DNA of 64,000 bases from Escherichia phage vB_EcoM_G2248. Position numbers and translations under genes: made by a program. The notes under the pieces were generated by a model that ran no database searches, was not told the DNA's origin, and saw only the letters and a list, made by a program, of their open reading frames with translations. The stretch lies in sequence record MK327932.1. One strand, written 5' to 3'. Shown one piece after another: positions 17,417 to 22,345 of the stretch; the stretch's first letter is position 1, and each line of letters begins with the position of its first letter.

Positions 17417-18820
17417 ATGAATAACACTATTAATCACGTAAAAGACGATGCACAGTATGTTAAGTTTGACCCTACCGGAAATTGGCCTAGCAATATAAAA
17501 AACGTACAAGCGGCATTAGCCGCTATTCAGGGGTTTGCTATTGCAGGTCTTCCAACGGCAACCGAAGAAACAGCGGGTATTGCTGAAATTGCTACTCAAA
17601 AAGAAGTAGATGATGGGTTGGATGGAACTAAAATTGTTACCCCAAAAACATTGGCTGTTAAGCTGTCAAGACCGGACGCAACAAAATTTGTTAAAGGGAT
17701 CACTCGCTATGCTAATAACGACGAAGCTATGGGCGATACTCCAAATATTGCAATTGGTCCTGATACATTAACCCATGTATTCGAGAAGAAGAAAGCAACG
17801 GAAACCGTACAGGGTACAATTAAAATTTGTTCTATGGATGCAGCAAAAATAGGTAGCGATGACACTATGGCGGTTACGCCTAAAAAGATGCACGCTGCTA
17901 TTGCTCAGATTGTTCCTGGGTTGATTCCAGAACAAAACACGGCGACCGAGTCCCGTGAGGGTTTAGTTAGACTGGCGACAAGCCAACAAACGCTTGCTGG
18001 TACTATCAGAGAAGGATTTGCCGTTAGTCCATATGCATTTTCCAACGCAAGAGCAAATGAAAATCAGGCGGGTACGGTTAAAATTGCCTCATCCCAACAA
18101 ATGATTGACGGTAATGACAACACAGTAGTAGTATCAGCACAAAAATTTGCGAACACTAAAGCAACCACTGGACAATTCGGTGTTGTTAAGCTAACAGATA
18201 ATCCCGGTTCCGGTGAAGCAAATGCTGCGTTATCTGCAAATGCTCGTGTATTGCCTCTAAGCGGTGGTGTCGTTACTGGTGATGTGTATCGTCATAGCGG
18301 AGGCGACGGAAACCAGTTTACCACTAAAAACGAAATGGATGCATGGTGTATGCCAATTGGTGCAATTATTCTAACTGCATTCAATAGCAATGATCATGGC
18401 GCATTTAAAATTTGTAACGGGCAATGGTTGAATAAACACCAATATCCTACGCTATTTGCTCGCATCGGATTTACATATGGTGGTGACGGTGGAGACCATT
18501 TCGCTGTTCCAGATATGCGCGGTCTTGTTGCTCGTGGGTGCGATTGGGGAAGAGGTTTAGACCCAGGTCGTGGATTTGGTACTTATCAAGACGACACCAT
18601 GCAACATATGACAGGTAACTTCCCTGTAGCTAACCGCTATCGCGGTTGGACTGGTGGTGCATTTACCATCACAGGTGGTCAATGGAGCACGAACTATAAA
18701 AACGGTGGCGGCGATGATTGGGGTAGTATTGTTAACTTTGACAGCGCAAGACAGGTTAGAACGTCTGGCGAAACTCGCGTTAAAAGCCTTGCATTAAACT
18801 ACGTTATAAGGGTACAATAA
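17417..18820 (+). CDS. 12: gp12 short tail fibre
   Basis: 467 aa, Gly/Thr/Ala-rich fibrous sequence, synteny. Confidence 0.7.
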   Translation: MNNTINHVKDDAQYVKFDPTGNWPSNIKNVQAALAAIQGFAIAGLPTATEETAGIAEIATQKEVDDGLDGTKIVTPKTLAVKLSRPDATKFVKGITRYANNDEAMGDTPNIAIGPDTLTHVFEKKKATETVQGTIKICSMDAAKIGSDDTMAVTPKKMHAAIAQIVPGLIPEQNTATESREGLVRLATSQQTLAGTIREGFAVSPYAFSNARANENQAGTVKIASSQQMIDGNDNTVVVSAQKFANTKATTGQFGVVKLTDNPGSGEANAALSANARVLPLSGGVVTGDVYRHSGGDGNQFTTKNEMDAWCMPIGAIILTAFNSNDHGAFKICNGQWLNKHQYPTLFARIGFTYGGDGGDHFAVPDMRGLVARGCDWGRGLDPGRGFGTYQDDTMQHMTGNFPVANRYRGWTGGAFTITGGQWSTNYKNGGGDDWGSIVNFDSARQVRTSGETRVKSLALNYVIRVQ

Positions 18821-20589
18821 TGATCGAACAATTAAACATTCGAAAGATCCCTAACGTCGATGGTGTCCCCGGAGAGGGACAACATTCTATTAGCTGGATT
18901 AAAAATGGTGAATGTCTAAGCGCAGCAACCACAGAAACAGGACACGAGGGGACGCTTAACCGCGCCCCTTATGCGATTCAAGAAAATATTGTTCGTCTGG
19001 ATGAAAATTCTAAGACAACGGTAACAAAAGTTAACGAAGTTGTTACAGCAGTTAATGATATTAAAACTACTTTAGGCGCGGTTGCTGATGGTAGTATTAT
19101 TGATATTGTCAATCAAACTATTGCAAAGGTTGAGTCTGTAGAAGAAAATTTAGGAGAAACTTCAAGGACATTACAAACCACAGTAGATGAACTGGCGGAG
19201 ACAGGAAAGAAAATTGGTGTTCGTCCGGCAGCAGATCCGAGTACACGAACAATATATGATGATATTTCTTTCATCAAACAAGAATTGGGTGCTTTCCCTA
19301 ACTTCAACATCAACGGTTATCCAGATCCAGGTAGTTCCGGTTCCGGTATCAAATATCGAGTTATCCAGAATACGGAAGCATTAAACAACCACGGTCAGCG
19401 AATCCGCCAACTAGAAAACGACTGGCAAGATTCTGACGTTGGAGAGCTAACAAAACAAGTTAACAAAATGCGAAGCGAGCTAGGCGACCCATCACTAGCA
19501 ACACAGGACAATGTTTATCTTCGTCTTCGTACCAACACTCGCAATATCGCTAGTATATCAAACGAAGTTCAGGAAGTAAAGAAAGCGATTCTATTTGAAT
19601 CAATTCCTGATATCGGTACTAAAGTAACCAAGCTACAATCTGATTATACACAGCTTAATGATGAAGTCAACGGCGTTGACGCTGGTATCCGTCCTCGTTT
19701 AACTCGTCTGGAAAATAAGATTGGCAATCCTCAATCCGCTGGAAGTATTGATTATCGATTGACTAATCAAGAACGGGAATTTGTAGATCTTAAATCTATT
19801 GTCGGTGTCAGTGGTGCTGATGGCCTACGTGGTGAGGTTGCACGAATCACTAACACCGTCGGCACGGATAACGAGCGTCACACAATCGCTGGTCGACTGA
19901 AAATCGTCGAAAACACGCAAGGGCGTTTAGAAGCAAACGTGCAGGATATCGAGCAAATGATCGGCAATCGAGATTCCGGTCTAATCGCTGGGGTTATTAA
20001 GCTGTCAAGCGACATGTACGGCAATCCAGAAGGAAGCACGCAGTTTGAACAAGATGGGATCGTGAAAACTGTTAAGGCATTGAGCACGTCAAATGAAAGC
20101 AAGATAACAGACGTTCCTGATGATGGGTTCCACTATCTCCGCAAACACGGAGAATGGGTCCAAGTTGCGTGGGCTGCTGGTGCATTTAAAAACACCACTC
20201 AGATTGATCTTACGCTAGACGAACAAGACCAATACAAAGGAATCCCGCTTACTGACATGACCGCAGAAGTTCCAGTGCGTGGATTGGTTAAGAGCGAATC
20301 TCTTGTTACGGTTAACGACAAAGGCTTATTCCGTTGTGTTTTCCGTTGTTCTGTACACGCGGCACATAACGCTACTTTCGTAGTCGGTATTGCTAAAAAT
20401 GGTCAGATTGTACATGAGGTACGAAATGGTCATTATGGAACTGATGAATTAATTAGCTATTCTACCAGTGCTTTCCTAAATATTGAAAAGGGCGACCGGA
20501 TCGATATTCGTATTAAGGGTGTATCCGTAGAAGCATTAGCGCAACCGCTACAAATTAAAGAGTTCCTCTTTGGAATTTCTCCGGTATAA
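18820..20589 (+). CDS. wac: fibritin (whisker / neck fibre) with extended C-terminal globular domain
   Basis: long coiled-coil-like central region, position between gp12 and gp13; 589 aa vs ~487 aa in T4. Confidence 0.6.
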   Translation: MIEQLNIRKIPNVDGVPGEGQHSISWIKNGECLSAATTETGHEGTLNRAPYAIQENIVRLDENSKTTVTKVNEVVTAVNDIKTTLGAVADGSIIDIVNQTIAKVESVEENLGETSRTLQTTVDELAETGKKIGVRPAADPSTRTIYDDISFIKQELGAFPNFNINGYPDPGSSGSGIKYRVIQNTEALNNHGQRIRQLENDWQDSDVGELTKQVNKMRSELGDPSLATQDNVYLRLRTNTRNIASISNEVQEVKKAILFESIPDIGTKVTKLQSDYTQLNDEVNGVDAGIRPRLTRLENKIGNPQSAGSIDYRLTNQEREFVDLKSIVGVSGADGLRGEVARITNTVGTDNERHTIAGRLKIVENTQGRLEANVQDIEQMIGNRDSGLIAGVIKLSSDMYGNPEGSTQFEQDGIVKTVKALSTSNESKITDVPDDGFHYLRKHGEWVQVAWAAGAFKNTTQIDLTLDEQDQYKGIPLTDMTAEVPVRGLVKSESLVTVNDKGLFRCVFRCSVHAAHNATFVVGIAKNGQIVHEVRNGHYGTDELISYSTSAFLNIEKGDRIDIRIKGVSVEALAQPLQIKEFLFGISPV

Positions 20590-20595
20590 GAAATT

Positions 20596-20619
20596 AAAGG
20601 GGCGTTAAGCCCCTTTTTC
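20596..20619 (+). terminator. rho-independent terminator after wac (GGGGC-gttaa-GCCCC + T5)
   Basis: hairpin 20599-20614 then TTTTT. Confidence 0.65.
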
Positions 20620-20635
20620 GTTTATAGGTGATATT

Positions 20636-21568
20636 ATGTCAGGATATGTAACCAATAACCCAAGAGAATTAAAAGACGCTATTCTGCGTCGTTTAGGCGC
20701 ACCAGTAATTAACGTAGAAGTCACAGAAGACCAGATTTACGATTGTATTCAGAGAGCACTAGAACTCTATGGGGAATATCATTTCGATGGTGTGAATAAA
20801 GGATATAAAGTATTTCGTGTTAGTGCAGAGCAAGCGCAACACGGGGTATTTGATTTAAGCGATTCTGGAGTATTCGCAGTAACTAAAATAATTCGAACAA
20901 ACGTAGGTAGCGCGGCTACGATGGATGGTACTGCCGTTTATCCGTGGTTTACTGACTTTCTGTTGGGTTTAGCGGGTGTAAATGGCGGTTTAGGATCTGG
21001 CTGTAGTAAATTTTATGGTCCAAATGCAATGGGCGGTGATCTGGGATATTTCGAACAGCTTATGAGCTATCGCGCAACTATGCAAAACATGCTTAATCCT
21101 CTTCCCGATTACTGGTATAACAGCGCAAACGGACAACTTAAGATTACAGGAAATTTTCGAGAAGGTGATCTCATTGTTGTTGAATTATATGTTAAAAGCT
21201 ATGTAGATGTTCCTGATATGATCGGCGCGGTTGCTGGCTATGCCCATGCAGGAGGATGTTCTACCGCTGGCGGGATTAGTGCCGTTTATGATAACCCAAC
21301 CGCAGGATTGAGCGGTATTTCGGCAGGAATGGGACCAATTAGAGAAAACAAACAGGGCGCATATAATAACCGTTGGGTGAAAGATATGGCTACCGCTTTC
21401 ACTAAGGAGGTGTGGGGGTCCATCATGGCTAAACATCAAGGTCTGCAATTACCTGGCGGTGTCACTGTTGATGGTATCCGAATCATTGAAGAAGCACGCG
21501 CCGATATTGAGAAATTGCGACAAGAACTAGAATTATTAGATCCTCCGTTCGGCATCCTCATGATTTGA
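20636..21568 (+). CDS. 13: gp13 neck protein
   Basis: 310 aa (T4 309 aa), synteny. Confidence 0.75.
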
Positions 21569-21604: not shown

Positions 21605-22345
21605 ATGTTTAACAACACTCTTTTTGCTCGCCTTGAATCGCAAAAGGATTATGAGAATACACGACAAACAGAGATTCTTAATCCTTATGTGAACTTTCAC
21701 AAATATACAAATACTCAGACGTTAGCCGACGTTATGGTCGCCGAAGCTATTCAGATGCGAGGTGTAGAATTATATTACATCCCTCGTGAATTTGTCAAAC
21801 CAGATATGATATTTGGTGAGGATGTTCAAAGCAAATTTACTAAAGCATGGAAATTTGCGGCTTATATTAACTCATTTGATGGGTATGAAGGAGCGGGTAA
21901 CTTCTTCTCTAGTTTCGGTTATCAAGCCAATGATGAACTAACTTTTACGGTTAACCCCAACCTATTCAAGCATCAAGTAGATGATCAAGAGCCAAAATCA
22001 GGTGACTTGATTTATATTCCAATGAGTAATGATTTATTTGAAATCTCATATGTAGAGCCATATCAGCCGTTTTTTCAGGCTGGCAAAAATGCCATGCGTA
22101 AAATTATTGCAGAGAAATTCGTGTATAGCGGCGAGGAATTGCGACCAGAATTACAACGCAATGAGGGAATTAATGTTGATGAGTTTGCGGATCTGGACCT
22201 TGCACCGATCACTAATCTGGACGGATTAACAGATATCAACTTAGAACAGTACAAAGAAGATAAGCAATTCAGAAGCGAAGGACAAGATTTTATTGACCCG
22301 TTTGATCCTATTAATGGCAAGGGTTCACCTTTTGCTAATTTTTGA
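21605..22345 (+). CDS. 14: gp14 neck protein
   Basis: 246 aa (T4 256 aa), synteny. Confidence 0.75.

Follow-up and report, generated by a model that had tools for sequence, protein, structure and literature searches.

The RB49-type fibritin of Escherichia phage vB_EcoM_G2248 carries a predicted C1q/TNF-like knob behind a retained foldon

Which structure ends the neck whisker of an RB49-like phage, and what might it do there? The question is raised by the wac gene in the window, by which we mean the whole 64,000-nucleotide stretch of Escherichia phage vB_EcoM_G2248 DNA that was analyzed (MK327932.1). According to the ORF list, the gene runs from an ATG start to a stop and encodes 589 amino acids, 102 more than T4 fibritin (487, the chain length in PDB 2bsg), in agreement with a preliminary description of this DNA that had put the excess at about 100. 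The PHROG 1056 profile ('fibritin neck whisker') matches amino acids 1-582 with an E-value of 1.5e-180, the Pfam family Fibritin_C matches amino acids 368-450 (86.2 bits, cut-off 21; E 1.8e-24) and T4 fibritin 2bsg aligns to amino acids 7-427 (E 1e-50). The gene is 99.8% identical at the nucleotide level to the 'fibritin' (wac) gene of phage KFS-EC. It is flanked by gp12-like and gp13-like genes in the order gp11-gp12-wac-gp13-gp14-gp15, and the gene order around wac is common to RB49, ECD7, JSE and WSPA. Judged by its sequence, the window gene is the wac (fibritin) gene of a Krischvirus, an RB49-like coliphage, and belongs to the published 'RB49 type'. RB49, Phi1 and JSE carry the same gene at the same position and with the same length of 589 amino acids, and their architecture does not differ from that of the window protein. 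The window protein is 77% identical to that of RB49 both overall and in the C-terminal domain, and the gene is 95% identical to that of JSE at the nucleotide level. The features of the locus are collected in the table.

Features of the wac locus (positions in the window; aa, amino acids of the wac product)
Feature	Position	Strand	Remarks
wac gene, RB49-type fibritin (neck whisker/collar fibre)	18820..20589	+	589 aa plus stop
Neck-binding N-terminal domain, aa 1-50	18820..18969	+	Aligns to T4 constructs
Segmented alpha-helical coiled-coil shaft, aa 51-426	18970..20097	+	Collinear with T4 fibritin shaft
Foldon homologue (beta-hairpin trimerisation motif), aa 427-450, SKITDVPDDGFHYLRKHGEWVQVA	20098..20169	+	Internal, directly before knob
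C-terminal knob, aa 451-589 (139 aa)	20170..20586	+	Predicted C1q/TNF-like 10-strand beta jelly roll
Recombination junction seen in relatives	20170..20270		Coincides with foldon/knob boundary
Terminator-like GC hairpin AAAGGGGCGTTAAGCCCCTTT, then TTCGTTT (T-run)	20596..20621	+	In the 46-nt wac-gene 13 spacer

The N-terminal domain and the shaft follow T4 fibritin. Amino acids 7-84 align to the T4 fibritin N-terminal constructs 1ox3 and 2ibl (E ~2e-14), and the N-terminal domain is the best-conserved segment in most comparisons, including those with all distant relatives (44-56% identity as against 30-42% for the shaft). In T4, this domain binds domain III of gp13 (PMC12929629). The shaft is 32.5% identical to that of T4 fibritin. 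An AlphaFold2 (AF2) model of the full-length monomer divides it, at low confidence, into approximately 14 helices split by loops. This model has a pLDDT of 59.5 and is uninformative on the shaft; low confidence is to be expected where a trimeric coiled coil is modeled as a monomer. The family PF28231, listed on close relatives, represents a 'faint' STB2_C match in the shaft and is irrelevant.

The shaft is followed by a foldon homologue that is not the end of the protein. The segment SKITDVPDDGFHYLRKHGEWVQVAWAA is identical to the 27-residue T4 foldon at 11 of 27 positions and aligns to T4 fibritin residues 458-480. The Fibritin_C match reaches profile position 91 of 93 at amino acid 450, and the foldon fragment alone scores 21.6 bits against this family, with a cut-off of 21. 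With a profile of the foldon region, foldon-tagged constructs in the PDB are matched at profile positions 5-25, and AF2 predicts a hairpin at amino acids 438-449. The motif is kept in all relatives compared, including Serratia phage WSPA. The preliminary description had proposed a compact beta domain at the C-terminus 'rather than' a short foldon; the foldon homologue is in fact kept, and a further 139 residues come after it. From these alignments, the RB49-type fibritin of the window is a T4-type fibritin, foldon included, to which a knob has been appended. T4 fibritin (2bsg, 1aa0 and the 1rfo foldon) shares with it the neck-binding domain, the segmented coiled coil and the foldon, and both proteins probably form whisker or collar fibres with a role in managing the long tail fibres. 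In T4, however, the foldon ends the protein and suffices for trimerisation, whereas in the window protein it precedes the predicted jelly roll.

The C-terminal knob is predicted to adopt a C1q/TNF-type fold, a jelly roll of ten antiparallel beta strands. The AF2 model of the knob has a pLDDT of 85.8 and a pTM of 0.79, with values of about 90 across the knob, and within the full-length model the same region retains a pLDDT of 81-93. Residues 453-588 are modeled as beta strands with high confidence. Foldseek matches in the PDB (prob 1.0, TMt 0.6-0.77) include ExsFA, BxpB, C1QL1/3, BclA, TRAIL, RANKL, 4-1BBL, the receptor-binding protein (RBP) of phage 1358 and the spike knob of phi812. The top matches are all obligate homotrimeric C1q/TNF-like domains, and BclA, C1QL, the phage 1358 RBP and the phi812 knob are terminal domains on fibres of coiled coil or collagen. 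In BFVD, Foldseek matches many phage 'collagen/C1q' fibre proteins. The model thus indicates a compact, all-beta globular domain, as the preliminary description had proposed. That description placed the domain in the last ~150 residues; a discrete domain is indeed present there, with its boundary better set at amino acid 451. C1q/TNF-like domains are very stable trimers. We infer by analogy that the knob forms a compact homotrimer, since its fold analogues are trimeric and the coiled coil and foldon upstream are trimeric as well.

Sequence comparison gives weak but concordant matches of the knob to C1q-like families. On the window knob, Pfam C1q (PF00386) scores 14.6 bits against a cut-off of 23.7 (E 0.039) and BclA_C (PF18573) 14.0 bits against a cut-off of 38 (E 0.048), both below threshold. 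BclA_C matches 12 of 15 relatives, with a best E-value of 3.9e-7, and is a precomputed annotation on the relative P0022. Among 1.84 billion representatives searched exhaustively with HMMER, no knob relatives were found outside the fibritins; the sole non-fibritin matches, the repeat proteins P0004 and P0005, are spurious. A word-indexed search with the knob returned two truncated gene calls of 110 amino acids, and the alignment query yielded no further matches. In the PDB, neither sequence nor profile searches detected a jelly-roll relative; they returned only foldon-tagged constructs and marginal NCAM2 Ig matches, the latter discarded as chance.

The domain is not distinguished by its composition. 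The preliminary description had called the last ~150 residues rich in cysteine, histidine and aromatic residues, and the two motifs it quoted, FRCVFRCSVHAAHN and GHYGTDEL, are present in the wac product. The last 150 residues contain 2 Cys, 5 His and 12 Phe/Trp/Tyr. In a comparison of amino acids 451-589 (2 Cys, 4 His and 11 aromatic residues) with amino acids 1-450, none of these enrichments is significant (Fisher p 0.14, 0.26 and 0.12, respectively). Both knob cysteines are substituted in relatives (FRVTFRV, FRIAFRA and FRVDFRA in P0020-P0022, KLEGKL in Serratia phage WSPA), and their loss is already seen among relatives that are 52-66% identical overall. It is very improbable that the C-terminus holds no additional domain and consists of an extended or duplicated foldon, of more coiled coil as in JS98-type fibritins, or of a Cys/His metal or disulfide site. 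Fibritins of the JS98 type with two foldon motifs do exist (PMC3797505), and 2 Cys and 4 His are found in the segment. Pfam and PDB sequence and profile searches, however, detect a single foldon and no second motif behind a coiled-coil spacer, the C-terminal region does not align to extended foldon variants lacking an extra domain, and residues 453-588 are beta strands matching jelly-roll structures. We rejected a metal or disulfide site in view of the lack of conservation of the residues and of any significant enrichment.

The knob evolves under constraint and is exchanged between lineages. When queried as a 140-residue module (amino acids 450-589), it is 77% identical to that of RB49 (tblastn E 2e-68). 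Across 57 Krischvirus records, knob identity is 75-100% with two main allele groups only, and the window knob belongs to the JSE/KFS-EC group. Such variation is far below that of typical host-range adhesins. Knob dN/dS values of 0.18-0.36 indicate purifying selection and exceed those of the shaft (0.07-0.13) 2-4-fold; by identity comparison, the knob evolves at about the rate of the shaft within the genus. ECD7 is ~99% identical to RB49 at the nucleotide level up to the junction at the foldon/knob boundary, but beyond it is 77% identical to RB49 and 99% identical to JSE through the knob. This allele swap in the ECD7 group, the one clear case, shows that the knob continues to move as a module between lineages. 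The higher dN/dS of the knob and the exchange of its alleles would also be compatible with an outward-facing ligand-binding role.

Phages that carry the knob also carry an enlarged long-tail-fibre protein gp36. RB49 gp36 is 496 amino acids long and is matched by T4 gp36 only over its N-terminal ~170 residues, so that RB49-type gp36 possesses a lineage-specific C-terminal extension of roughly 300 amino acids. In a search with the C-terminal 216 residues of RB49 gp36 (82 records, 22 of them not among the matches listed), coverage of at least 93% was found only in Krischvirus and Serratia Muldoon-like phages, among the matches listed. The knob occurs in these lineages as well. In the fibritin shaft, RB43-type phages show the closer resemblance (40% versus 30% identity), yet they have neither the knob nor the gp36 extension. 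The co-occurrence could result from shared ancestry. Strict co-variation of knob and gp36 C-terminal alleles within Krischvirus was not found: in ECD7, 011D4 and PHB13 the knob is of the JSE type, but the C-terminus of gp36 is 100% identical to that of RB49.

Taken with what is published on RB49 and T4, these results make it moderately probable that the knob is a trimeric distal domain acting both as the folding nucleus of the fibre and as a dock for the long-tail-fibre knee. Three knob copies would form a compact trimeric tip at the distal end of each whisker or collar fibre; they would set the register and start trimerisation at the C-terminus, with the coiled coil zipping up from there. This role is taken from the literature on RB49. 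According to a review (Letarov and Krisch, 2013, PMC3797505, citing Letarov et al., 2005), folding and trimerisation of RB49 fibritin need sequences in the expanded C-terminal domain, and only the T4 and JS98 fibritins fold by foldon motifs alone. The absence of a chaperone ORF downstream of wac, where the ORF list has gp13 starting at position 20636, fits such a role. The surface of the knob may in turn dock the long-tail-fibre knee, where gp36 bears its lineage-specific extension. Docking is suggested by the co-occurrence of knob and extension and by analogy with T4, in which the C-terminal end of fibritin contacts the long tail fibre near the knee (PMC3797505). The knob would thus take on the job of the bare foldon end in T4, aiding fibre attachment and holding the fibres retracted under unfavourable conditions.

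Two other functions share the predicted fold and differ in the partner they assign to it. The knob could be an accessory adhesin or sensor, an outward-facing head that binds a host-surface glycan or an environmental ligand in reversible pre-adsorption or in the gating of fibre release, which we consider rather unlikely. The preliminary description had suggested such an additional binding or sensing function for the whiskers. Its fold is that of the BclA and C1q recognition heads and of carbohydrate-binding phage RBP heads such as the lactococcal 1358 RBP with GlcNAc (4l92/4rgg); knob dN/dS exceeds that of the shaft, and modules are exchanged between lineages. Adhesin-like roles have been raised for variant fibritins, and Letarov and Krisch proposed an adhesin- or sensor-like role for the Ig-bearing fibritin of RB43 (PMC3797505). 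Yet 57 Krischvirus genomes differ little in the knob, with 75-100% identity and only two main allele groups, a pattern unlike that of real host-range determinants, and no known glycan-binding family matches the knob above its threshold. Host range in RB49-like phages is ascribed to the long tail fibres (PMC9569957), and the analogous TNF-like needle knob of Sf6/HS1 conferred no host specificity (PMC3741392). The Sf6 knob binds L-glutamate. A bolder proposal, in which the whisker tip is a C1q-like recognition head for a host-envelope glycan or a small ligand bound at the interface, and so a second outward sensor or adhesin that gates long-tail-fibre release beyond docking, appears quite unlikely.

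It is likewise unlikely that the knob is a purely structural cap. As a bigger stand-in for the foldon, or as a support to it, the knob would then do no more than stabilise the trimer and keep it in register, and would bind no partner. The great stability of C1q/TNF-like trimers fits such a cap, as does the lack of allele-level co-variation with gp36. Moreover, the expanded C-terminal domain of RB49 fibritin is reportedly required for folding (PMC3797505). Against this, the foldon is kept and conserved, so that there would be no need for a second trimeriser that added no function. The tip of the T4 fibre has a genetically and structurally supported partner in the long tail fibre, and the knob co-occurs with the lineage-specific gp36 extension.

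Comparable fibre heads occur in bacteria, animals and other phages. The C-terminal domain of BclA, ExsFA-BxpB of the Bacillus exosporium and globular C1q domains (C1QL1/3, adiponectin, cerebellin) are jelly-roll matches of the predicted knob at 10-17% identity. In C1q and BclA, such domains cap a trimeric fibre C-terminally as a trimeric head and act as its trimerisation nucleus. The stalk is collagen in BclA- and C1q-type fibres but coiled coil and foldon in the window protein. The head of the phage 1358 RBP (4l92, 4rgg) belongs to the same fold class and is an example of saccharide binding on a phage fibre, though it is a siphovirus baseplate receptor-binding protein and 11-12% identical to the knob. 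The Sf6/HS1-type tail-needle knob (gp26 homologues; 3RWN, 4K6B) likewise combines a trimeric coiled-coil phage fibre with a TNF-like jelly roll, and only some lineages of gp26-type needles have this knob, the others ending in a different small tip, a case of modular exchange (PMC3741392). It differs from the window knob in that it belongs to a tail needle instead of a neck whisker and is a seven-strand variant with bound L-glutamate; we detected no sequence relationship between the two.

The existence of an RB49-type fibritin whose expanded C-terminal domain is needed for folding has already been published (Letarov et al., 2005; Letarov and Krisch, 2013, PMC3797505; PMC9569957). Only the predicted fold of the knob is new here. 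In PMC3797505 and PMC9569957 the RB49-type C-terminus is described as 'expanded' and 'unrelated to T4', with no mention of its fold or of the retained foldon, and we found no link between fibritin and the C1q fold in the papers searched. The annotation should accordingly change from an 'expanded module unrelated to T4's' to a T4-type fibritin with foldon and a predicted C1q/TNF (BclA-like) knob. One case of an 'alien C-terminal module' is thereby recast as domain accretion, not replacement, and the interaction of the whisker with the enlarged gp36 knee in Krischvirus gains a concrete structural hypothesis. None of this amounts to a new type of system.

The wac product of the window is a known RB49-type fibritin, real but ordinary, in which a predicted C1q/TNF-like (BclA-like) knob is appended after a retained foldon. 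PHROG 1056 ('fibritin neck whisker') covers aa 1-582 (E 1.5e-180) and T4 fibritin (PDB 2bsg, 487 aa) can be aligned with aa 7-427 (E 1e-50), bearing out the fibritin identity given in the preliminary description; its estimate of about 100 aa beyond T4 fibritin also holds, the excess being 102 aa (589 versus 487). At the DNA level wac shares 99.8% identity with the annotated fibritin gene of Escherichia virus KFS-EC and ~95% with phage JSE, and all 57 megablast matches are RB49-like phages, classified as Krischvirus in the RB49, ECD7 and JSE records.

Coordinates of wac, neighbouring genes and the JSE-like stretch of ECD7 (window positions except where a locus is named)
Feature	Position	Strand	Remarks
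wac ORF	18820-20589	+	589 aa; ATG start
gp12-like short tail fibre ORF	17417-18820		467 aa; stop overlaps wac start
gp13-, gp14-, gp15-like genes	3' of wac, after 46-nt spacer		
gp14	21605-22345		directly abuts gp15
JSE-like stretch of ECD7 wac	L003 (ECD7 locus) 2500-2920 = window 20170-20589		comparison with L002 (RB49) and L004 (JSE)

The foldon is retained and not replaced, as indicated by profile and T4 alignments, matches to PDB constructs and conservation in relatives. Pfam Fibritin_C matches aa 368-450, reaching position 91 of the 93-position profile. The span aligned with the T4 foldon is aa 427-449, and SKITDVPDDGFHYLRKHGEWVQVAWAA is identical to the T4 foldon at 11 of its 27 residues; among the positions in common are the core Tyr, Arg and Trp and the glycines of the turn. 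Searching the PDB with a profile of the foldon region returned dozens of foldon-tagged constructs, always at profile positions 5-25, and the motif is kept in every relative compared, including the Serratia phage fibritin with 30% overall identity. A compact beta domain had been proposed in place of a short foldon, but the foldon is still present at aa 427-450, upstream of the knob.

The extra sequence beyond the foldon (aa 451-589) is predicted to fold into a jelly-roll domain. AlphaFold2 modeling of aa 425-589, with a 15-sequence alignment as input, yielded a beta hairpin leading into a ten-strand sandwich (mean pLDDT 85.8, pTM 0.79). In the full-length model the C-terminal domain has a pLDDT of 81-93 and the shaft is poorly defined, with ~14 helical segments recognisable across aa 51-426, as expected when a trimeric coiled coil is modeled as a monomer. 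Foldseek returned 247 PDB matches at E <= 0.001, the top ones all of the C1q/TNF-like jelly-roll class (probability 1.0, target-normalised TM 0.6-0.77, identity 10-17%). They comprise Bacillus exosporium proteins (ExsFA/BxpB, BclA C-terminal domain), the C1q group (C1QL1/3, adiponectin, cerebellin) and TNF ligands (TRAIL, RANKL, 4-1BBL); phage matches are the lactococcal phage 1358 receptor-binding protein, a cyanophage A4 tail protein and the phi812 central-spike knob. Among predicted viral structures (BFVD), the best matches are a 594-aa protein at 25% identity, presumed to be another fibritin, and numerous 'collagen triple helix' or 'C1q domain' fibre proteins of phages. Model and matches thus agree with the compact beta domain suggested earlier and contradict a reading as an extended foldon without an extra domain. 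Pfam matches to the window knob are weak (C1q E 0.039, BclA_C E 0.048); across 15 family members BclA_C is found in 12 (best 3.9e-7) and C1q in 10, and a BclA_C match is precomputed for one relative (P0022). All scores obtained with the window protein stay below the Pfam gathering score, so C1q/TNF membership is assigned at the level of the predicted fold.

Cys, His and aromatic residues number 2, 5 and 12 in the last 150 aa, described earlier as Cys/His/aromatic-rich, and aa 451-589 show no significant enrichment over aa 1-450 (Fisher p 0.12-0.26). Relatives carry Thr, Val, Ile or Ala at both Cys positions of the FRCVFRC motif. A Cys/His site is contradicted by both observations.

The extended domain itself was already known. 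The 'RB49 type' is one of eight alternative fibritin C-termini (Letarov & Krisch 2013, PMC3797505), and the Wac C-terminus of RB49-like phages has been described as unrelated to that of T4 (PMC9569957, published in 2022). Foldon motifs by themselves are stated to suffice for folding only in the fibritins of T4 and JS98, and RB49 fibritin folding is reported to depend on the C-terminal domain (PMC3797505). In the literature searched we found neither a C1q/TNF fold assignment for the RB49-type C-terminus nor a discussion of a retained foldon in RB49; assignment of this fold, on a retained foldon, is what the present analysis adds.

The knob is confined to fibritins in the sequence searches and is exchanged within the genus. 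A tblastn search with the knob matched 57 Krischvirus records plus a single Serratia phage, and the Serratia copy as query added eight Serratia Muldoon-like phages, one Cronobacter phage and one Klebsiella phage, the match lying in each case where the fibritin gene ends. Scanning 1.84 billion representative proteins exhaustively with HMMER, we recovered fibritins only, besides two spurious repeat proteins (P0004, P0005) rejected as knob relatives. Within the genus, knob and shaft diverge at about equal rates; dN/dS is 0.18-0.36 for the knob versus 0.07-0.13 for the shaft, and the knob is under purifying selection less strict than that on the shaft. ECD7 is ~99% identical to RB49 at the nucleotide level through gp12, the wac shaft and the foldon; from a point matching window ~20170-20270 it is 77% identical to RB49 and 99% to JSE, placing the junction at the foldon/knob boundary. 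The corresponding ECD7-RB49 dS is 0.019 for the shaft and 0.58 for the knob. By these sequence comparisons ECD7 wac is a mosaic in which the knob behaves as a module, and so recent a C-terminal allele exchange is hard to square with the published opinion that this locus no longer undergoes swapping.

Domains of the C1q, BclA and TNF types occur as obligate trimers, and those of C1q and BclA nucleate the trimeric stalk they cap. By analogy, the modeled knob would form a trimer at the distal tip of each whisker/collar fibre and may nucleate its trimeric stalk, which fits the reported C-terminal dependence of RB49 folding and the window ORF list, where no chaperone gene follows wac. The knob may also dock to the long-tail-fibre knee (gp36 region); evidence that the fibritin C-terminus touches the fibre near the knee is summarised in PMC3797505. 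We examined this partner through the published idea that the C-termini of fibritin and gp36 co-vary. RB49 gp36 (496 aa; 14157-15647 of L005, its gene 36 locus) resembles T4 gp36 only over its first ~170 aa, the Pfam T4 gp36 model matching residues ~57-154 and the other ~300 aa having no family match. Its C-terminal 216 aa, aligned over at least 93%, were found only in Krischvirus and Serratia Muldoon-like phages among the matches listed (60 of 82 records), lineages that also carry the knob. RB43-type phages, whose fibritin shaft is closer to that of the window (40% versus 30% for the Serratia phage), have neither the knob nor the RB49-type gp36 C-terminus. This co-occurrence supports, but does not prove, docking to the knee; at the level of alleles, knob and gp36 C-terminus do not co-vary: in ECD7, 011D4 and PHB13 a JSE-type knob accompanies a gp36 C-terminus identical to that of RB49.

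An accessory adhesin or sensor, a role we consider unlikely, would accord with the raised dN/dS, recombination of the knob as a unit and the use of the same fold for glycan recognition in the heads of other phage fibres seen in the Foldseek comparison, but knob diversity is low and host specificity was not determined by an analogous TNF-like knob on the tail needles of P22-like phages (PMC3741392). That the knob is a purely structural cap is also unlikely, and a trimeric knob that assists folding and docks to the fibre knee is the reading we prefer.

Several further features were observed. The BFVD match A0A1J0MHA5 (Klebsiella phage KPV15) is a free-standing 159-aa protein that matches the foldon-plus-knob model across nearly its whole length (TM 0.71-0.74, 22% identity), and in other phage lineages the predicted module may be encoded by a gene of its own. 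Two 110-aa ENA metagenome gene calls (P0001, P0002) begin at Met480, inside the knob (MTAEVP...), and in all likelihood represent fibritin genes that were truncated or mis-called, not free-standing knob proteins. Between the window and JSE, synonymous divergence (pS) is 0.64 in the 25 foldon codons (aa 426-450, 20095-20169) and ~0.12 on either side, and nucleotide identity dips again to 87-89% at 19767-19967; both look like small recombination patches. In the gp12-like gene, the window/JSE type and the RB49/ECD7 type are 23-37% identical at 17667-18467, which is random level in an ungapped comparison, and return to ~75-80% from ~18470, consistent with either an indel shift (467 versus 466 aa) or a divergent segment. 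The wac-gene 13 spacer contains a strong, terminator-like GC hairpin, AAAGGGGCGTTAAGCCCCTTT, at 20596-20616 followed by a T-run to 20621, readable as a terminator on both strands. Homing-endonuclease genes, which the window lacks at this place, adjoin the neck genes in some relatives: segC separates gene 13 from gene 14 in ECD7 (L003 3969-4553), and others follow gene 14 in JSE (L004 4720-5420) and one metagenome contig (L007 6567-7322).
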